DNA of 7,002 nt from a virus (lineage: Duplodnaviria; Heunggongvirae; Uroviricota; Caudoviricetes), in IMG/VR virus record IMGVR_UViG_2778261354_000001, positions 1 to 7,002 of that record; one strand, given 5' to 3'. Below are positions 1-7,002 of the stretch, piece by piece. Both the position numbers and the translations under genes were made by a program. Below the pieces are notes generated by a model, which made no database searches, had not been told where the DNA came from, and saw nothing but the letters and a program-made list of their open reading frames with translations. Positions within the stretch are counted from its first letter, which is position 1, and each line of letters starts with the position of its first letter.

Positions 1-50
1 CGAACTGCTCCCCTGGCGCGTAGCACTGCCGACTGAATAACACATCCCCG

Positions 51-77
51 TCAATACGGTTCTTGCTGCACGCTTAC
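51..77. repeat. Left copy of a bipartite inverted repeat: TCAATACGGTTCT (51-63), 7-nt spacer TGCTGCA (64-70), CGCTTAC (71-77)
   Basis: Read directly from the sequence. The reverse complement of 6926-6952 is TCAATACGGTTCT-GACGAGT-CGCTTAC, so 20 of 20 arm positions match and only the 7-nt spacer differs. The copy lies in apparently non-coding DNA upstream of the HNH gene. Confidence 0.8.
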
Positions 78-108
78 TTCTATAGTGTCCAGTAAATCAA
101 ACAGGAAA

Positions 109-130
109 CTTGTCCAACGTGTTGGACAAG
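109..130. promoter_or_regulatory. Perfect dyad symmetry element CTTGTCCAAC-GT-GTTGGACAAG (10-bp arms, 2-nt centre), a candidate operator or activator site upstream of the HNH/late gene block
   Basis: Read directly: 109-118 is the exact reverse complement of 121-130. It contains TGT(111-113)-N12-ACA(126-128). It sits about 120 nt upstream of the HNH start. No T-run follows, so it is not an intrinsic terminator. Confidence 0.45.
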
Positions 131-250
131 CCTCTCCATTAGTGAGTTGTATTGATCACAACTCTACAAAGAATTCATTACTGGGTAGATGAAAATAGTT
201 TCACTATGAATGGAGGAGGCTATGTCGGTGGCTTCTTCATTGGAGTACAT

Positions 251-601
251 ATGCCCCCACGAATCCCACGCGCCTGCCGTAAGCGTGGATGTGCAGGTAC
301 AACCACAGACAGTTCTGGTTACTGCGATAAACATCGTGGCGAAGGATGGGTACAGCATCAACGCGGACTGAGCCGCCACCAGCGTGGCTATGGCTCGAAA
401 TGGGATGCCATACGTGCGCGCATACTGAAGCGTGATAATCATTTGTGTCAGAACTGCCTGCGCAATGGGAGAGCCGTTGAAGCCAGAACTGTGGACCACA
501 TCATTCCGAAAGCTCATGGTGGCACGGATGCAGACAGTAACCTGCAGAGTCTGTGCTGGCCCTGTCATAAAGCAAAAACAGCGCGCGAACGCATCAATTG
601 A
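251..601 (+). CDS. HNH homing-type endonuclease, phage packaging-associated
   Basis: Part of track ORF 152..601. The translation from ATG 251 (MPPRIPRACRKRGC...) carries Cys pairs (CRKRGC, CQNC, CWPC) and the HNH core: DHIIPKAHGG (His), SNLQ (Asn), CHKAKT (His). A GGAG at 242-245 lies 5 nt upstream of ATG 251. Alternative in-frame starts are ATG 206 and TTG 152. Its position immediately upstream of terS is typical of HK97-like cos phages. Confidence 0.85.
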   Translation: MPPRIPRACRKRGCAGTTTDSSGYCDKHRGEGWVQHQRGLSRHQRGYGSKWDAIRARILKRDNHLCQNCLRNGRAVEARTVDHIIPKAHGGTDADSNLQSLCWPCHKAKTARERIN

Positions 602-748
602 TAACAGTTCCCATCTGTAGGGGAGGGGCAGGTCAAATCTCTGCAACCCTGGCTGCTCAGTACCGCCGCCTGACCTTTCCTCGCATCGCCGCAGGTTCGA
701 AAACTTTTTTTTGGAATGTGATTAAATGATTGATAGGTAAAACCGATT
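602..748. other. HNH-terS intergenic region; putative cos / terminase recognition region
   Basis: A 147-bp non-coding gap with GC-rich tracts (GGGGAGGGGCAGGTC at 620-634; ACCGCCGCCTGACCT at about 662-676) and a T8 run at 705-712. The assignment is positional: in HK97-like cos phages the cos site lies between the HNH gene and terS. The exact cleavage site cannot be determined from sequence alone. Confidence 0.35.
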
Positions 749-1231
749 ATGTCTGGACCCCCGAAAACCCCGCCACGCCTGCATTTGATACGAGGTAACC
801 CCTCAAAGCGGCCAGTTAAAGACTCCAAAAAAACCGCTAAAAAGGATGAAAAAGGTCTCCCTAAAATTCCGCAACATTTAGGGGCGCAGGGGAAGTACTG
901 GTTCAGGCGAATGGCGGAAGAGCTGAATGCGGAAGGGATCATTTCTCAGCTCGATGCACGTGCGCTCGAGTTACTGGTGGAAGCCTACACCGAATACCGG
1001 CATCACTGCGAAATACTCGATGTTGAGGGTTATACCTACCGCACGGAAACGCAGAATGGCGATGTGCTGATCAAGGCACACCCGGCTGCTGCGATGAAGG
1101 CTGATGCCTGGAAGCGGATTCGGGCGATGCTTGCAGAGTTTGGTATGTCACCGGCAAGCCGGGCGAAAGTAAATACCGCCGGACCGGATGATGTTGATCC
1201 GCTGGCAGAGCTTTTAAAAGCGAGAGACTGA
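749..1231 (+). CDS. terS: Terminase small subunit, P27 family
   Basis: Track ORF 749..1231 (160 aa). It has a basic, Pro/Lys-rich N-terminus (MSGPPKTPPRLHLIRGNPSKRP...) followed by a helical region (GKYWFRRMAEELNAEGI...), which is characteristic of P27-type small terminases. Its TGA stop overlaps the terL ATG (TGATG at 1229-1233). Confidence 0.85.
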   Translation: MSGPPKTPPRLHLIRGNPSKRPVKDSKKTAKKDEKGLPKIPQHLGAQGKYWFRRMAEELNAEGIISQLDARALELLVEAYTEYRHHCEILDVEGYTYRTETQNGDVLIKAHPAAAMKADAWKRIRAMLAEFGMSPASRAKVNTAGPDDVDPLAELLKARD

Positions 1232-2988
1232 TGGCAAAAGTGGCTGACGGGATCCGCTACGCCGAACGTGTTGTTGCAGGAGAAATTGTTGCTGGCGAAT
1301 TTGTCCGTCTGGCCTGCCAGCGTTTTCTTGATGATCTGAAGTACGGCGAAGAGCGGGGGATTTATTTCAGTGAACCCCGTGCACAGCACATCCTTAATTT
1401 CTACAAATTTGTACCCCATGTGAAAGGGGCGCTGGCAGGTCAGCCCATTGAGTTGATGGACTGGCATGTGTTTATCCTCATTAATATTTTTGGTTTTGTC
1501 ATTCCGCTGGTGAATGAAGAAACCGGGGAAGTTGTCATGCGCAGCGATGGCAGTGGACGCCCGGTGATGGTGCGCCGGTTCCGGACAGCATACAACGAAG
1601 TTGCCCGTAAAAACGCAAAATCAACCCTGTCATCGGGTATCGGTCTGTATATGACGGGGGCAGATGGTGAAGGCGGGGCTGAGGTGTATTCAGCCGCAAC
1701 CACGCGTGACCAGGCCAGAATTGTGTTTGAAGACGCCAAAAATATGGTCAGAAAAGCCCGGTCGACACTCGGGCGGTTGTTTGATTTCAACAAGCTGGCG
1801 ATTTACCAGGAGCAGAGCGCATCAAAATTTGAACCGCTTTCCTCGGATGCAAACAACCTGGACGGTCTGAACATCCACTGCGCCATTATTGATGAGCTGC
1901 ATGCTCATAAAACCCGTGACGTGTGGGACGTTCTGGAAACGGCAACCGGTGCCCGTCTGCAGTCTCTGTTATTTGGCATCACCACGGCTGGCTTTAACAA
2001 GGAAGGGATTTGCTACGAGCAGCGCGATTACGCCATTAAGGTATTGCGAGGCTATAACAGCGACGTGGAGGGCGCGGTAAAAGACGACTCCTACTTTGCG
2101 ATCATTTACACGCTCGATGAGGGAGATGATCCGTTTGATGAAACGGTCTGGCAGAAAGCGAATCCTGGCCTGGGCATCTGTAAACGCTGGGATGATCTGC
2201 GTCGTCTGGCGAAAAAAGCGAAGGAGCAGGTCTCTGCGCGGGTGAATTTTTTTACCAAACACATGAATGTGTGGGTCACTGCCGAATCTGCCTGGATGGA
2301 TATGATTAAGTGGGAGAAGTGCGAATACATTGCTCCACAACATGAGCTGAAAACATATCCCATGTGGGTCGGCGTCGACCTTGCTCATAAGATTGATATC
2401 TGTGCGGCGGCAAAACTCTGGCGAACCGATAACGGACATGTTCATGCTGATTTTAAATTCTGGCTTCCGGAAGGACGGCTGGAACGATGCTCGCGGCAGC
2501 AGGCAGAACTTTACCGGAAGTGGGCGGAGATGGATAAGCTCATCCTGACGGATGGTGATGTTATCGATCATGCTCAGATAAAAAGTGACTTACTGGAATG
2601 GATTGGCGGTGAAAACCTCAGGGAACTGGGGTTTGACCCGTGGAGCGCAATGCAGTTCAGCCTGGCACTGGCTGAAGAAGGGATACCGCTGGTGGAGGTT
2701 CCGCAGACGGTCCGCAATCTGTCAGAGGCCATGAAGGAAACGGAATCACTGGTTTATGCCGGGCGTTTCCATCACAGCAATCATCCGGTCATGAACTGGA
2801 TGATGTCTAACGTTACTGTAAAACCGGACAAAAACGACAACATCTTCCCGAATAAATCCACGCCGGAAGCCAAAATCGACGGCCCTGTTGCGCTTTTTAC
2901 AGCCATGAGCCGCTTTCTGGTAAATGGCGGGGGCGTGAATGACTTTCTGTCCACGCTTGATCCTGATGAGGACCTGTTAATTCTGTGA
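1231..2988 (+). CDS. terL: Terminase large subunit (ATPase plus RNase H-like nuclease)
   Basis: Track ORF 1231..2988 (585 aa). The P-loop region is VARKNAKSTLSSGIGLY, Walker B is CAIIDELH, followed by GAEVYSAATTRDQARIVF; the C-terminal nuclease region contains VGVDLAHKID. The start is translationally coupled to terS. Confidence 0.95.
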   Translation: MAKVADGIRYAERVVAGEIVAGEFVRLACQRFLDDLKYGEERGIYFSEPRAQHILNFYKFVPHVKGALAGQPIELMDWHVFILINIFGFVIPLVNEETGEVVMRSDGSGRPVMVRRFRTAYNEVARKNAKSTLSSGIGLYMTGADGEGGAEVYSAATTRDQARIVFEDAKNMVRKARSTLGRLFDFNKLAIYQEQSASKFEPLSSDANNLDGLNIHCAIIDELHAHKTRDVWDVLETATGARLQSLLFGITTAGFNKEGICYEQRDYAIKVLRGYNSDVEGAVKDDSYFAIIYTLDEGDDPFDETVWQKANPGLGICKRWDDLRRLAKKAKEQVSARVNFFTKHMNVWVTAESAWMDMIKWEKCEYIAPQHELKTYPMWVGVDLAHKIDICAAAKLWRTDNGHVHADFKFWLPEGRLERCSRQQAELYRKWAEMDKLILTDGDVIDHAQIKSDLLEWIGGENLRELGFDPWSAMQFSLALAEEGIPLVEVPQTVRNLSEAMKETESLVYAGRFHHSNHPVMNWMMSNVTVKPDKNDNIFPNKSTPEAKIDGPVALFTAMSRFLVNGGGVNDFLSTLDPDEDLLIL

Positions 2989-3146
2989 AACAGCTTATTA
3001 CTGATATGACCGGGCTGATCGGTTTCGGTCTGCTCACTGCTGGCGTTTATCTGTATGCAGGTCTGCCAGCGTCTCTGATGCTGTCTGGCTGTTTGTTGCT
3101 GCTTTATGCACTGGTGGTGTCCATGAGGAGAAAACATGCTTCTTGA
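2985..3146 (+). CDS. Small hydrophobic protein (about 53 aa from GTG 2985, or about 46 aa from ATG 3006), predicted membrane protein, hypothetical
   Basis: Not in the ORF track. My own translation is (V/M)KQLITDMTGLIGFGLLTAGVYLYAGLPASLMLSGCLLLLYALVVSMRRKHAS*, with two hydrophobic stretches and a basic C-terminus. It is rich in CTG codons. The GTG start overlaps the terL stop (GTGA), and its stop at 3144-3146 overlaps the portal start at 3136. It fills the otherwise unexplained terL-portal gap. Confidence 0.4.
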   Translation: MKQLITDMTGLIGFGLLTAGVYLYAGLPASLMLSGCLLLLYALVVSMRRKHAS

Positions 3147-4362
3147 TGCTCTGTTTCGCAGTGAGCCTCTGGAAAATCCCTCGGTTCCGGTAACCGGAGA
3201 GGCTGCTGAGACGGATAATATTTTTGCCCGGGATGTGTATGTCAGTCCGGAAACATCCATGAAGCTGGCTGCTGTCTATGCCTGTATTTATGTTATTTCA
3301 TCCAGTGTGGCTCAGATGCCCCTGCATGTGATGCGAAAAACGAATGAGCATGTTCAGCCTGCACGCGATCATCCGTTGTTCTGGCTCGTTCATGATGAAC
3401 CGAATGCCTGGCAGACCAGCTATAAGTGGCGGGAACTGAAGCAGCGTCATGTGCTGGGGTGGGGCAATGGTTATACGTGGGTAAAACGTAATCGTCGTGG
3501 AGAGGTTACCAGCCTTGAATGCTGTATGCCATGGGAAACTACGTTACTTAACACCGGTGGGCGTCATACTTACGGGGTGTATAACGAAGAGGGTGCATTT
3601 GCGGTAAGTCCGGACGACATGATCCATATCAGGGCGCTGGGAAACAATCAGAAAATGGGACTGAGCCCGATCATGCAGCATGCTGAAACCATTGGTATGG
3701 GAATGAGTGGCCAGCAGTATACCAGCGCCTTTTTTAACGGTAATGCCCGTCCTGCCGGTATTATTTCTGTGAAAAATGAACTGAACGAACAAAGCTGGGG
3801 CAGGCTTAAAAATATGTGGCAGCGGGCGGTGACAGCGCTTCGCAGCCAGGAAAATAAAACCATGTTGCTGCCTGCGCAACTGGATTACCGCGCTCTGACA
3901 GTTTCTCCGGTGGATGCTCAGATCATTGATATGACCAAGCTGAACCGGTCGATGATTGCCGGGATTTTTAATGTCCCGGCGCACATGATTAATGACCTGG
4001 AAAAAGCCACATTTTCGAATATTACGCAGCAGGCGATTCAGTTTGTTCGCTACACGATGATGCCCTGGGTTGCGAACTGGGAGCAGGAGCTTAACCGTCG
4101 CCTGTTTACCCGTACAGAACGGGCTGCCGGGTATTACGTTCGTTTCAACCTCACGGGGTTGCTCCGTGGGACCCCACAGGAGCGTGCGCAGTTCTATCAC
4201 TTTGCCATTACAGATGGCTGGATGAGTCGGAATGAAGCCAGGGCATTTGAGGATATGAACCCGGTTGACGGTCTGGATGAAATGCTGGTCAGCGTAAATG
4301 CAGCAAATCCGTTGAATAACTTTAAAGATACGAAAGGCAAAGAGGAAAAGAACGATGAATGA
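3136..4362 (+). CDS. Portal protein, HK97 family
   Basis: Track ORF 3136..4362 (408 aa). Its size, position immediately after terL, and sequence character (e.g. ...NRSMIAGIFNVPAHMINDLEKATFSNITQQAIQFVRYTMMPW...) fit HK97-type portals. A GAGGAG at 3125-3130 lies 5 nt upstream of the ATG. Confidence 0.93.
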   Translation: MLLDALFRSEPLENPSVPVTGEAAETDNIFARDVYVSPETSMKLAAVYACIYVISSSVAQMPLHVMRKTNEHVQPARDHPLFWLVHDEPNAWQTSYKWRELKQRHVLGWGNGYTWVKRNRRGEVTSLECCMPWETTLLNTGGRHTYGVYNEEGAFAVSPDDMIHIRALGNNQKMGLSPIMQHAETIGMGMSGQQYTSAFFNGNARPAGIISVKNELNEQSWGRLKNMWQRAVTALRSQENKTMLLPAQLDYRALTVSPVDAQIIDMTKLNRSMIAGIFNVPAHMINDLEKATFSNITQQAIQFVRYTMMPWVANWEQELNRRLFTRTERAAGYYVRFNLTGLLRGTPQERAQFYHFAITDGWMSRNEARAFEDMNPVDGLDEMLVSVNAANPLNNFKDTKGKEEKNDE

Positions 4363-4954
4363 CCGTGAAACGCGCTGTTACAGCGGGGAGGTGCGGGCGG
4401 AACAATATGATAATGCCCCGACCCACATTCTGGGGTATGGCTCGGTATTTAACAGTCGTTCAGAACCTCTGTGGGGATTTCGTGAAATCATCAAGCCGGG
4501 GGCTTTTGATGATGTACTGAATGATGATGTACGTGGCTTGTTTAATCATGATCCTAATTTCATTCTCGGACGAAGTTCTGCCGGCACGTTGTCATTGTCG
4601 GTGGATGAACGCGGTTTACGTTATGACATTGTTGCACCGGATACTCCGACTATTTGTGACCTGGTGCTGTCTCCAATGTTGCGTGGTGACATTAATCAGT
4701 CCTCGTTCGCGTTTCGTGTCGCCCGTGACGGAGAGAGCTGGTATGAAGACGACGAGGGGATTGTTATCCGGGAAATCACGCGCATTTCTCGTCTGTATGA
4801 CGTCAGCCCGGTGACATATCCGGCCTATCAGGACGCAGACTCTGGTGTCCGCTCAATGAAAGCCTGGCAGGAAGCGCGGGCGAGTGGTGCGCTGAAGAAA
4901 GCTGTTAACGAACGAATGGCGCGTGAGCGTCTTTTGACCCTTCTTAATGCATAA
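4355..4954 (+). CDS. Prohead maturation serine protease, HK97 family (S78/U35-type)
   Basis: Track ORF 4355..4954 (199 aa). It carries the HK97-protease-like motifs LFNHD (candidate catalytic His) and GDINQSSFAF (candidate catalytic Ser). It overlaps the portal stop by 8 nt (ATGAATGA) and sits directly upstream of the capsid gene. Confidence 0.92.
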   Translation: MNDRETRCYSGEVRAEQYDNAPTHILGYGSVFNSRSEPLWGFREIIKPGAFDDVLNDDVRGLFNHDPNFILGRSSAGTLSLSVDERGLRYDIVAPDTPTICDLVLSPMLRGDINQSSFAFRVARDGESWYEDDEGIVIREITRISRLYDVSPVTYPAYQDADSGVRSMKAWQEARASGALKKAVNERMARERLLTLLNA

Positions 4955-4968
4955 GGATACTACTGACG

Positions 4969-6186
4969 ATGAAACTTCATGAGATGAAGCAAAAACGAAA
5001 CACCATTGCAAAGGATATGCGTGCACTGCATGAAAAAATTGGTGATAACGCATGGACTGATGAGCAACGGGCAGAGTGGAACAGGGCGAAAGCTGAGCTG
5101 GATGCGCTGGATGAGCAAATCGCCCGTGAAGAAGAGTTGCGCCGTCAGGATCAGGCATATGTGGATGAGTCCGGGCCGGAAGAGCGCCAGAATAATGAGG
5201 CGGAGAACGGGAAAAAGGCGGTGGAAGAGAAGCGTGCTGCGGCATTTAACCGTTTTCTGCGTGCCGGATTTGCAGAACTGAATGCTGAAGAGCGTAATCT
5301 GATGCGTGAACTGCGGGCTCAGAGTGTAACAACGGATTCTCAGGGCGGATATACGGTGCCCACGCAGATGCGTAACAAAATCATTGACACCATGAAGGCT
5401 TATGGCGGGATTGCCAGTGTGGCGCAACTTCTGACCACATCAACCGGGCAGGATATCACCTGGTCAACGTCTGATGGCACGACTGAAGAGGGCGAACTGC
5501 TGGCGGAAAATACAGCCGCAACGGAACAGGATGTGACGTTCGGGACCGCTATTCTGGGGGCTAAAAAGCTGTCATCAAAAATAATTCGTGTGTCCAATGA
5601 GCTGCTCCAGGACAGTGGGGTGGATATTGAATCTTATCTGGCAAACCGTATTGCCCAGCGTATTGGTCGTGGAGAGGCAAAATATCTGGTTCAGGGGACC
5701 GGAACGGGATCACCGTTACAGCCAAAAGGGCTGGCAGCGTCGGTGACGGGAACCATCCAGACTGCAGCCTCTGCCGCTTTCACCTGGAAAGAAATGAATG
5801 CCCTGAAACATGCCATTGATCCGGCATATCGTGGTGGGCCGAAATACCGCTGGGCATTCAATGATGCCACATTGCAGACTATTGAAGAGATGGAGGATGG
5901 ACAGAAACGCCCGTTATGGCTGCCGGATATTGCAGGCGGTACGCCGGCTACTGTGCTGGGGATCCCTTATGTTATTGATCAGGCTATTGACGGGATTGGT
6001 ACCGGAAAAAAATTCATTTTCCTGGGGGATTTCAACCGCTTTATCATTCGCCGCGTTACTTATATGGAACTGAAACGTCTGGTTGAGCGTTATGCTGAGT
6101 TTGATCAGGTGGCATTTCTGGCTTTCCATCGTTTTGACTGTGTGCTGGAAGATGTGGCAGCCATCAAGGCGCTCACTGGCAAATAA
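4969..6186 (+). CDS. Major capsid protein, HK97 fold, with N-terminal delta (scaffolding) domain
   Basis: Track ORF 4969..6186 (405 aa). The N-terminal ~100 aa are highly charged and coiled-coil-like (delta domain), followed by a typical HK97-type body (GGYTVPTQ..., ...LWLPDIAGG...). An AAGGA at 4953-4957 precedes the ATG. The gene follows the protease as in HK97. Confidence 0.95.
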   Translation: MKLHEMKQKRNTIAKDMRALHEKIGDNAWTDEQRAEWNRAKAELDALDEQIAREEELRRQDQAYVDESGPEERQNNEAENGKKAVEEKRAAAFNRFLRAGFAELNAEERNLMRELRAQSVTTDSQGGYTVPTQMRNKIIDTMKAYGGIASVAQLLTTSTGQDITWSTSDGTTEEGELLAENTAATEQDVTFGTAILGAKKLSSKIIRVSNELLQDSGVDIESYLANRIAQRIGRGEAKYLVQGTGTGSPLQPKGLAASVTGTIQTAASAAFTWKEMNALKHAIDPAYRGGPKYRWAFNDATLQTIEEMEDGQKRPLWLPDIAGGTPATVLGIPYVIDQAIDGIGTGKKFIFLGDFNRFIIRRVTYMELKRLVERYAEFDQVAFLAFHRFDCVLEDVAAIKALTGK

Positions 6187-6207
6187 CCACTCGTTGTTCA
6201 GTTACAG

Positions 6208-6229
6208 ACCGCGCCGACGCGGTTTTTTT
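6208..6229 (+). terminator. Rho-independent terminator downstream of the capsid gene
   Basis: Stem ACCGCG (6208-6213) / CGCGGT (6218-6223) with loop CCGA, followed by a T7 run at 6223-6229. It begins 22 nt after the capsid stop codon. Confidence 0.6.
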
Positions 6230-6231
6230 AT

Positions 6232-6251
6232 GCCCGCACAGTGTTGCGGGC
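6232..6251 (+). promoter_or_regulatory. Second hairpin (7-bp stem GCCCGCA/TGCGGGC, 6-nt loop) abutting the ribosome-binding site of the connector gene
   Basis: Read directly: 6232-6238 is the reverse complement of 6245-6251. The 3' stem base C6251 is the first base of the CAGGAG Shine-Dalgarno (6251-6256) for ATG 6263. Confidence 0.4.
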
Positions 6252-6262
6252 AGGAGTTTCTG

Positions 6263-6580
6263 ATGGCAGCAATAGTGGAAAAACTCAGGGCGCAGTGCCG
6301 TATTGATACAGATGATGCAACTGATGATGAGTTACTGATGCTGTATTTCCGGGCTGCCTGCCGCAAGGCAGAAAATTTTATCAACCGTAAGCTTTATGAG
6401 GAGACGGTGCCGGAAGGTGATCCTGAAGGGGTGCTTATAGCTGATGATGTTTTGCTGGCGCTCATGTTGCTGGTCGGGCACTGGTACGAAAACCGGGAAA
6501 ATTCCTCAGATGTCAGCAAGGCACCAGTCCCGTTTGGTTTTTCTTCTCTGCTGGAGCCTTATCGTTTTATTCCTTTGTAG
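6263..6580 (+). CDS. Head-tail connector protein (gp6-like)
   Basis: This is the in-frame 3' part of track ORF 6083..6580. The ATG at 6263 is preceded by CAGGAG at 6251-6256 and lies downstream of the terminator. The 105-aa product (MAAIVEKLRAQCRIDTDDATDDELLMLYFRAACRKAENFINRKLYEE...) has the acidic N-terminal region typical of gp6-like connectors. The track's upstream extension would span the terminator and is rejected. Confidence 0.8.
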   Translation: MAAIVEKLRAQCRIDTDDATDDELLMLYFRAACRKAENFINRKLYEETVPEGDPEGVLIADDVLLALMLLVGHWYENRENSSDVSKAPVPFGFSSLLEPYRFIPL

Positions 6581-6588
6581 GAGGAGGC

Positions 6589-7002
6589 ATGCAGGCGGGC
6601 AGATTACGTGATCGCGTAATTATTCTGAATGTCACCACCGCCCGCTCTCCGTCAGGGCATCCGGTGGAGACGGTGACGGAGGGAGCTACCGTATGGGCAG
6701 AAGTTAAGGGTATCAGCGGGAGGGAGATAATCTCAGGCGGAGCAGAAACCGCTCAGGCTACGGTCAGAGTCTGGATGAGATTCCGGCGAGATGTAACAGC
6801 AACTTCATGTCTAAAAGTGCTGACCGGTGCATTTAAAGGGGCCATTCTGGGTATAGAAGGTCCACCAATACCGGATGCACGCGCTACCCGGCTTGAAATA
6901 CTCTGCAGCCTGAAGGGGAATGTGTGTAAGCGACTCGTCAGAACCGTATTGATATTTACTGAGAGCTCAGATCAACTTTCCAGGGCAACAGATCGCGTAC
7001 CC
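6589..7002 (+). CDS. Head closure / head-tail joining protein (HK97 gp9/SPP1 gp16-like); 3' end not reached within the window
   Basis: Not in the ORF track because there is no stop codon in the window. GGAGGAGG at 6581-6588 precedes ATG 6589. My translation is MQAGRLRDRVIILNVTTARSPSGHPVETVTEGATVWAEVKGISGREIISGGAETAQATVRVWMRFRRDVTATSCLKVLTGAFKGAILGIEGPPIPDARATRLEILCSLKGNVCKRLVRTVLIFTESSDQLSRATDRV..., which follows the head-closure family pattern. The frame stays open to position 7002. Confidence 0.7.
   Translation, partial: MQAGRLRDRVIILNVTTARSPSGHPVETVTEGATVWAEVKGISGREIISGGAETAQATVRVWMRFRRDVTATSCLKVLTGAFKGAILGIEGPPIPDARATRLEILCSLKGNVCKRLVRTVLIFTESSDQLSRATDRVP
6926..6952. repeat. Right copy of the bipartite inverted repeat: GTAAGCG (6926-6932), 7-nt spacer ACTCGTC (6933-6939), AGAACCGTATTGA (6940-6952)
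   Basis: Read directly: this is the reverse-complement partner of 51-77, with 13/13 and 7/7 arm identity and a different spacer. It lies within the open reading frame of the head-closure gene, at roughly codons 113-121. Confidence 0.8.

Follow-up and report, generated by a model that had tools for sequence, protein, structure and literature searches.

Enterobacterial islands described by Chen and Schneider in 2006 are said to carry tandem T7-like promoters while lacking a polymerase; they are reportedly 4-13 kb in length, bear an integrase and direct repeats, and were read as satellites. A defence of related logic, the "triggered-suicide" system of Djordjevic, O'Sullivan, Walker, Conkling and Klaenhammer (1997), was reportedly engineered in Lactococcus by placing a lethal gene behind a phage-inducible promoter. 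The present analysis concerns a 22-bp dyad at positions 109-130 of a 7,002-nt stretch of caudovirus DNA (IMG/VR record IMGVR_UViG_2778261354_000001, positions 1 to 7,002; hereafter the window). Comparison with relatives identifies this dyad as the hairpin module of a predicted minus-strand cassette, in which a T7-type promoter, the hairpin, an SP6-type promoter, a leader and a small open reading frame (ORF) follow one another. The predicted cassette was either taken over from virulent T7-supergroup phages or is matched to them, and it sits in a Q-regulated lambdoid prophage without an annotated phage-type RNA polymerase (RNAP). Such a hairpin-promoter cassette in lambdoid prophages appears to be new, and the defence function that we propose for it below would, if true, be a new principle. 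Searches of full-text literature, taken without the SP6 genome paper and the two Chen and Schneider papers, found no account of SP6- or T7-type promoters in lambdoid prophages, nor of the hairpin.

The dyad reads CTTGTCCAAC-GT-GTTGGACAAG, with perfect 10-nt arms at 109-118 and 121-130 around a 2-nt spacer, just as an earlier note on this DNA had described it. That note also called such a repeat unlikely by chance in 7 kb, a judgement that has to be tempered, because perfect inverted repeats with arms no shorter than 10 nt and a spacer no longer than 10 nt arose in 65 of 1,000 dinucleotide-preserving shuffles of the window; on its own, the dyad is only marginally unexpected. It is present in one copy in the window, even when up to three mismatches are allowed, and none of the shuffles held a match to it at that tolerance. 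What makes the dyad a real feature is that it is conserved and covaries in relatives, not its symmetry alone. A 2-nt loop is impossible, so that any hairpin formed by the dyad has a loop of 4 nt closed by nine or more pairs. The core GUCCAAC-AC-GUUGGAC, read on the minus strand, is extended into a stem of 13 pairs (134..105), G·U pairs included. The HNH gene, whose start at 251 is supported by homology to annotated coding sequences, begins 121 nt downstream of the dyad on the plus strand.

A distant-mode search with window positions 78-250 returned an intergenic match in Klebsiella SP6-like podoviruses, and it was this match that prompted us to read the minus strand. The Klebsiella phages align with window 78-127, and their coding strand runs from a stop codon through GTCCAACACGTTGGAC, 16 nt and ATTTAGGGGACACTATAGAAG to a Shine-Dalgarno (SD) sequence and a gene. 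The minus strand of phage vB_EcoS-640R1 (locus L001; hereafter 640R1), one of the relatives free of the insertion sequence (IS) that begins the window, reads CTTGTCCAACACGTTGGACAAG, then TTTCCTGTTTG, then ATTTACTGGACACTATAGAAGGA. In the window itself, the minus strand from 97 to 75 (positions -17 to +6) holds an SP6/K1-5-type single-subunit phage RNAP promoter, ATTTACTGGACACTATA, followed from the predicted +1 at position 80 by GAAG(TA). Its 97..77 portion, ATTTACTGGACACTATAGAAG, matches the K1-5 consensus promoter, (G/T)ATTTACTGGACACTATAGAAG, and the broader consensus ATTTA-NNN-GACACTATAGAAG (-17 to about +4) is present, the K1-5 match running through +4, where the IS begins. A position weight matrix (PWM) was built from 29 genuine promoters of SP6, K1-5 and KpnP_VR702, which themselves score between 24.1 and 38.3 bits; window 97..75 scores 33.2 bits on the minus strand and is the sole match of at least 10 bits in the 7-kb window. 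Between this promoter and the dyad lies a U-rich spacer, GUUUCCUGUUUG (98..108, minus strand), which a terminator scan of the minus strand picks out together with the hairpin.

The relatives carry the same kind of promoter with differing specificity. The 640R1 promoter, GATTTACTGGACACTATAGAAGGA, is identical over 24 nt to the K1-5 promoter at 12589, and phage SfIV (locus L003) has the SP6-specific variant ATTTAGGTGACACTTTAGAAGG as its only PWM match in 39.7 kb. Cassettes of the Escherichia coli/Shigella lineage have their spacer and flanks in common and differ in the bases at -12 to -10, where CTG marks the K1-5 type and GGT the SP6 type, and for ATG no match is known. The annotation of SfIV lists 54 genes, a Q-like antiterminator but no RNAP gene among them, and the lack of an RNAP gene in the host element makes the SP6-type promoter an orphan. 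By sequence, window 97..75 is an SP6-group promoter, and its transcription by a cognate RNAP is predicted. Neither window 1-800 nor the surroundings of the 640R1 copy of the cassette yielded a sigma-70-like promoter. Vector contamination was considered as a source of these promoters and rejected, since they are tandem rather than convergent, have diverged from vector sequences, and lie in a region found in 628 complete genomes.

The hairpin is itself a recurring companion of SP6-group promoters. SP6, K1-5 and KpnP_VR702 each have a hairpin of the form GTC(C/T)(C/A)AC-N2-GT(T/G)(G/A)GAC upstream of three promoters; two of these sites closely follow the RNAP gene, and the third falls between gp19 and gp20 (or the corresponding genes). 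Further podovirus contigs in IMG/VR carry the same arrangement. The window contains this stem (GTC-NN-AC N2-3 GT-NN-GAC) upstream of its SP6-type promoter and on the same strand, at a spacing of 11 nt; the spacing is 3-17 nt in the lytic phages and reaches about 60 nt in some prophage cassettes. Two forms of the stem are distributed across both lifestyles: CCAAC/GTTGG, the form of SP6 and the Klebsiella phages, is found in the window, 640R1 and SfIV, and CTCAC/GTGAG, the form of K1-5, in the O157, A0 34/86, NT1F10 and JB2 prophages. Within a single phage genome all three copies are uniform, being CTCAC in K1-5 and CCAAC in KpnP_VR702. An Rfam search with the homologous 640R1 region returned only weak chance matches. 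A scan of genome contigs for ATTTANNNGACACTATAGAAG gave 21 matches in unrelated taxa, with about 17 expected by estimate and no enterobacterial representative genome among them.

Across 24 distinct aligned sequences, pairing in the core of seven base pairs holds in 166 of 168 cells. Two of these pairs change by compensation: pair 9-18 is CG in 13 sequences, UA in 9 and UG in 2, and pair 10-17 is AU in 16 and CG in 7. The covariation score of 0.255 compares with 0.132 for shuffles, none of 500 of which reached it, and with 0.02-0.07 for slid registers; these are related sequences, with fewer independent events than the cell counts suggest, which takes some weight from the result. The wobble variants (the SfIV type, loci L021, L029 and L092, and two of the SP6 copies) all pair as U·G when the minus strand is read and would be C·A in the plus strand; the sole opposite wobble is at the loop-closing position of NT1F10, a pair that could not form with a 2-nt spacer. 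ViennaRNA predicts the minus-strand hairpin to be the more stable in 8 of 10 variants. The compensatory changes and the U·G asymmetry together imply that the element acts as a single-stranded minus strand and not as a symmetric duplex operator, and the molecule would most simply be RNA. We consider it very probable that the dyad is the minus-strand hairpin of an SP6-type hairpin-promoter unit. The suggestion in the earlier note that the dyad might be an RNA stem-loop was right about the kind of element and missed the strand and the transcription unit.

A second element resembling a phage promoter lies on the other side of the hairpin. In SfIV, reading along the minus strand, CAATACGACTCACTAATGGGGAG immediately precedes the hairpin; it matches 17 of 23 positions of the T7 consensus, with AATACGACTCACTA as a 14-nt exact run. 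The corresponding T7-type promoter-like sequence of the window occupies 132..154 on the minus strand and reads CAATACAACTCACTAAT followed by GGAGAG from a would-be +1 at 137 (full reading CAATACAACTCACTAATGGAGAG). A second and weaker inverted repeat, GAGTTGT-N7-ACAACTC (144..164, arms 144-150 and 158-164, no strand assigned), overlaps this element; it has one compensatory change in SfIV (GAGTCG/CGACTC) and a mismatch in NT1F10, and its status is uncertain.

Other prophages carry the cassette with near-consensus T7- or T3-type promoters in the corresponding position, and it recurs in Citrobacter-type prophages, again with T7- or T3-type promoters upstream. At locus L140, antisense and directly after Rz, a near-consensus T7-type promoter, ATTAACGACTCACTATAGGGGGA, is followed by the hairpin AAAAGTCCAACACGTTGGACAACCCC, then ATTTACGGGACACTATAGAAGC, the SD sequence TAAGGAGA and an ORF of 39 amino acids, and a second cassette lies 690 nt away. 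The two L140 cassettes stand in tandem on the minus strand at 8566-8790 and 9022-9456, with a comparable locus at L133 1379-1873; in the second tandem cassette the first ORF is a truncated 20-amino-acid member of the window type, followed by an ORF of 38 amino acids (44 in L133) with its own SD sequence. L133 has an additional hairpin without a promoter. Loci L147, L150, L187 and L195 have T3-type promoters (for example GATTAACCCTCACTATAGG), the hairpin GTC(C/T)AAC-N3-GTTGGAC and the SP6-type variant AGACCACTATAGAAGCAGG (GACCACTATAGAAG), and downstream of the promoter a 5' stem-loop, AGGAGGT and an ORF of 38-44 amino acids. T7- or T3-type and SP6-type promoters stand within about 60-80 nt of each other in elements that hold no RNAP gene. 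In the Citrobacter-type leaders (L144 2960-3000; L147, L150 and L187) a GCAGG-N5-CCTGC stem and then CTCGTTTTT come just before the SD sequence; this leader element is terminator-like and might block read-through by the host RNAP.

The unusual promoter variant of the T3-type group also has a lytic counterpart. A lytic 44.6-kb podovirus contig has the exact GACCACTATAGAAG variant at nine sites, with a hairpin of 3-nt spacer before three of them. The lytic SP6-like contig IMGVR_UViG_2706795706_000001 (L155, L174, L180, L205 and L213) has promoters of the form AATTA(A/G)AGACCACTATAGAAG and GTCCAAC-N3-GTTGGAC hairpins before three of nine, and its lineage has a distinct promoter specificity, with C at -8. 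The predicted promoter class and the hairpin form of the prophage cassettes track real lytic phage groups.

Downstream of the SP6-type promoter, the intact relatives have a 5' stem-loop, a consensus SD sequence and an ORF of 40 amino acids. This ORF is open in every one of 35 haplotypes, and its SD sequence is AAGGAGG in nearly all and AAGGAAG in a few. The putative payloads form a family of small (36-44 amino acids), mostly hydrophobic proteins, with grand average of hydropathy (GRAVY) values of 0.45-1.0, that fall into three related groups: one of 44 amino acids (MFSxLxIS..IAIAPSIN..CLAISLALLKRYGIIKPTRR), one of 38 amino acids (MSRNQFFELAKAYADSINAIISLICLLIAKHYGVLQYF), and one of 37-40 amino acids that includes the window-type ORF and has the motif ...S(L/V)IH(F/Y)x(L/I)TGxPL. 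All of their database homologues are labelled hypothetical, and a tblastn search of the small ORFs against phages found the same prophage loci only. They are not homologous to the gp20-type protein encoded after the equivalent promoter in lytic phages.

The window as a whole is, from position 77 onward, a lambdoid late region of the phiP27/SfIV type, in which the HNH endonuclease gene, the cos region, a P27-family small terminase, the large terminase, the portal, an HK97-type protease and the capsid follow in order; the intergenic region between the HNH and small terminase genes (about 602-748) corresponds to the annotated cos site of phiP27. Positions 1..77 on the plus strand are the 3' end of an IS66-family element (the end of the transposase gene and the terminal repeat), with 100% identity to IS66-family transposase ends in Shiga toxin (Stx) phages. 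The IS66-family genes lie on the plus strand, the transposase coding sequence stops about 40 nt short of the junction, and phage homology starts at 77. The insertion is at +4/+5 relative to the SP6-type start, parting the promoter from its payload ORF, and the promoter in the window would now fire into the IS66-family element, antisense to the transposase genes. The junction between IS66 and promoter was absent from complete E. coli genomes among the best matches. Independent insertions of IS1203 (IS3 family) have struck the upstream hairpin arm in two variants (L009 at about 1520-1590, and L019), and a further one interrupts the HNH gene in a prophage of O157:H7 (L004 1832-3113), so the cassette region seems to be a repeated IS target.

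The undisturbed arrangement is seen in the IS-free relatives 640R1, E. coli 203740 (L002) and SfIV. The first two have holin, lysozyme and Rz genes on the plus strand, bor/iss on the minus strand, the 40-amino-acid ORF with its perfect SD sequence on the minus strand, the dyad, and the HNH gene on the plus strand. In SfIV the 40-amino-acid ORF is antisense to, and overlaps, the 3' end of the plus-strand Rz1. A non-coding remnant of the SfIV-type Rz/Rz1 3' end lies beside the cassette in 640R1 (L001 3770-3882 against L003 2770-2882), where the real Rz and the bor/iss moron sit further left. The cassette seems to be co-inherited with the Rz1 3' end, a linkage that L140 shows twice. The 173-nt cassette region was found in 628 of 5,426 complete E. 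coli genomes, and the cassette loci are always Q-type lambdoid late regions, with the cassette antisense and placed between lysis or Rha genes and the terminase.

We propose that the cassette is a defence triggered by the invader's polymerase. In a lysogen it would stay silent for lack of a phage polymerase. A superinfecting SP6-like or T7-like phage would supply the RNAP, the cassette would be transcribed, and the small protein would be made as an abortive-infection or exclusion payload. The hairpin would serve as a boundary, insulating against or terminating upstream read-through or stabilising the transcript end. That the cassette defends in this way, its small protein interfering with infection, is an idea to which we give somewhat less than even weight, and the structural and functional claims taken jointly seem on balance probable. 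A wider version, which we put forward tentatively, is that lambdoid phages of Escherichia, Shigella and Citrobacter may carry a natural "polymerase trap": orphan T7/T3- and SP6/K1-5-type promoters with a hairpin between them and a membrane-active small protein by which infection would be aborted or blunted, with promoter and hairpin types tracking the local lytic phages.

Several observations weigh against this proposal. The payload ORFs have no match in Pfam, NCBIfam, PHROGs or PADLOC, and the toxicity or membrane activity of their products is a guess. Over the 20 N-terminal codons, about 15 nonsynonymous changes and a single synonymous one separate the ORF of 640R1 (L001 3833-3952, minus strand) from that of SfIV, which could reflect fast or positive evolution or else weak coding constraint, and the C-terminal half of the window-type ORF overlaps the Rz1 3' end on the other strand. 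The T7-type element of the window is degenerate, matching 15 of 23 consensus positions and having an A at specificity position -11. The IS insertions in the window, L009 and L019 show that the cassette is dispensable. G·T pairs are tolerated in hairpins of single-stranded DNA, so the wobbles establish the strand and not that the molecule is RNA. Recognition by a phage-encoded factor would also suit the hairpin arms, given how strongly their sequence is conserved and that every copy in one phage genome has the same variant. Finally, the U-tract that a canonical terminator would need is not conserved, which makes that role for the hairpin doubtful.

This last point bears on what the hairpin does. 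In a terminator scan the minus strand of the window and of 640R1 passes, with 13 pairs and the tail CUGUUUGAUU, and many homologous copies, among them those that follow the RNAP gene in SP6 and those of L150 and L187, have no U-tract. A further objection to such a role is that strong termination there would cut off the T7/T3-type promoter lying upstream. In SP6, seven RNAP terminators are annotated, some of them within 14 bp of start sites (PMC11347151). A class II (ATCTGTT) terminator after the hairpin was considered and rejected, ATCTGT being found there in SP6 only and not conserved. An RNase III site was discounted, the stem being presumably too short for that enzyme. For the hairpin we favour a boundary, insulator or transcript-end-stabilising stem-loop over a protein operator, and the more specific assignment of a terminator or insulator is one that we would make only with hesitation.

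An alternative account of the hairpin, unlikely in our judgement and still deserving attention, is that it is a recognition site, as RNA, single-stranded DNA or double-stranded DNA, for a factor of SP6-like phages that regulates promoters or acts at a replication origin, with the prophage copy titrating or exploiting that factor. The GTCCAAC/GTTGGAC arms are conserved across elements of Escherichia, Shigella, Citrobacter and Klebsiella, one variant fills all three copies of a phage genome, and the hairpin type of the prophages covaries with their promoter class. Two of the copies, moreover, flank promoters just downstream of the RNAP gene, which is where the primary origin of T7 lies. Against such a site, the distance between hairpin and promoter varies, U·G wobbles are tolerated, even in the SP6 copies, and no candidate factor was identified.

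That the cassette is a drifting, non-functional relic of recombination between lambdoid and SP6- or T7-like phages is a rather improbable reading, for which the mosaic nature of lambdoid late regions, the bor/iss insertion and Rz1 3' remnant next to the 640R1 cassette, the repeated IS hits and the degenerate T7-type element of the window could all be cited. A relic would hardly keep its promoter core, hairpin pairing, SD sequence and ORF length across lineages whose flanks are 75-85% identical, nor would the same architecture have been built with different promoter classes in several prophage lineages. Such changes as have occurred are concentrated at -12 to -10, the specificity positions, where they correspond to real phage groups.

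The orphan promoters, in an element with no RNAP gene, would also be expected of a satellite-like prophage that exploits the invader's polymerase to express functions for its own spread instead of aborting the infection. We give this little credence, because the sole sense product near the promoters is a protein of 37-44 amino acids, transcription beyond it would be antisense to lysis and late genes, and SfIV is an autonomous phage.

Less probable again is a hairpin in the plus-strand late (pR'-type) transcript that tunes the stability or processing of the HNH/terminase mRNA. The perfect dyad of the window does fold as plus-strand RNA, at -13.5 kcal/mol, and by analogy with lambda the Q-antiterminated late transcript must traverse the region; however, the variants that are U·G on the minus strand become C·A on the plus strand at a loss of 2 to 10 kcal/mol, and the element always accompanies a minus-strand SP6-type promoter and lies on the coding strand, in the same sense, in lytic phages. 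The remaining reading, that of the earlier note, is a duplex-DNA operator at which a dimeric Ogr/Delta-type or helix-turn-helix regulator controls the plus-strand HNH-terminase-head operon, and we regard it as highly improbable: the twofold symmetry is perfect, a TGT-N12-ACA is literally contained in the window dyad and the HNH gene lies 121 nt downstream, yet relatives do not keep the outer TGT/ACA (it is CGT...ACA in SfIV and altered on one side in the phage copies, with only the inner GTC-NN-AC/GT-NN-GAC preserved), the arms vary by compensated double substitutions and strand-asymmetric U·G wobbles, no sigma-70 -10 element is found about 55 bp downstream, the relatives use a Q antiterminator and have no annotated Ogr/Delta-like gene (judged by annotation only, over the 54 SfIV genes, the window itself holding packaging and head genes), and the element occurs in strictly lytic SP6-like phages at promoter distances too variable for a fixed activator geometry. 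Regulon sites, as the same note remarked, recur at other operons; the dyad is found once in the window and once in the whole genome of SfIV. The condition that the note set for refuting its reading, loss of the dyad from relatives that retain the flanking sequence, did not come about, the dyad being retained.

If the polymerase-triggered defence that we propose is true, about 250 bp and a 40-amino-acid protein would suffice for a defence or sensing principle that takes as its trigger the enzyme most specific to the invader and indispensable to it. Defence surveys based on protein families would miss the cassette, whose payloads seldom carry an annotation and fall into no family. The presence of promoters known from cloning vectors (SP6, T7 and T3) in about one ninth of complete E. 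coli genomes would also be accounted for, and host-range effects, together with escape mutations in the polymerase specificity loop, are predicted for such phages as K1-5 and K1E, both employed against E. coli of the K1 type. Whatever its function, the hairpin upstream of some SP6-group promoters is conserved and covarying, and is worth studying in the lytic phages themselves.

Among known systems, the cassette is closest to the SP6-like phages (Molineuxvirinae: SP6, K1-5, K1E and Klebsiella relatives). It shares with them a promoter identical or near-identical over 17-23 nt, the group-specific bases at -12 to -10 included, the same GTC-NN-AC/GT-NN-GAC stem-loop, which in those phages lies 3-17 nt upstream on the same strand, and a 5' stem-loop and strong SD sequence after the promoter. 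It differs in residing in a temperate lambdoid prophage without a single-subunit RNAP gene, antisense to the late operon, and in encoding a 40-amino-acid ORF where those phages encode an acidic gp20-type protein of 122-125 amino acids. The Chen and Schneider islands reportedly likewise combine tandem T7-supergroup promoters with the lack of a polymerase gene in enterobacterial mobile DNA, which implies that an infecting phage would activate them; the cassette, in contrast, takes up about 250 bp where the lysis and packaging genes meet in full-size Q-type prophages, and it has two promoter classes, a conserved hairpin between them and a predicted small-protein payload. With triggered-suicide defence it would have in common the logic of a silent lethal or inhibitory gene switched on by the invader's transcription machinery only. 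That system is synthetic and relies on a promoter dependent on a phage activator, whereas the cassette is natural, carries promoters of the type used by the invader's own polymerase, and has an uncharacterised payload.

The cassette also resembles prophage morons of the bor and lom type and type I toxin genes in being a small autonomous unit that is placed among the genes of the late operon, opposes late transcription and encodes a small hydrophobic protein. Morons, however, are expressed in the lysogen from sigma-70 promoters, and none of that kind was found around the cassette; type I toxins are paired with an antisense RNA antitoxin, and no such RNA was identified here. With the late promoters of P2 Ogr and P4 Delta, the window has in common only the literal TGT-N12-ACA spacing: the form of the dyad that carries it is neither conserved nor repeated, and it has no partner promoter and no cognate activator.

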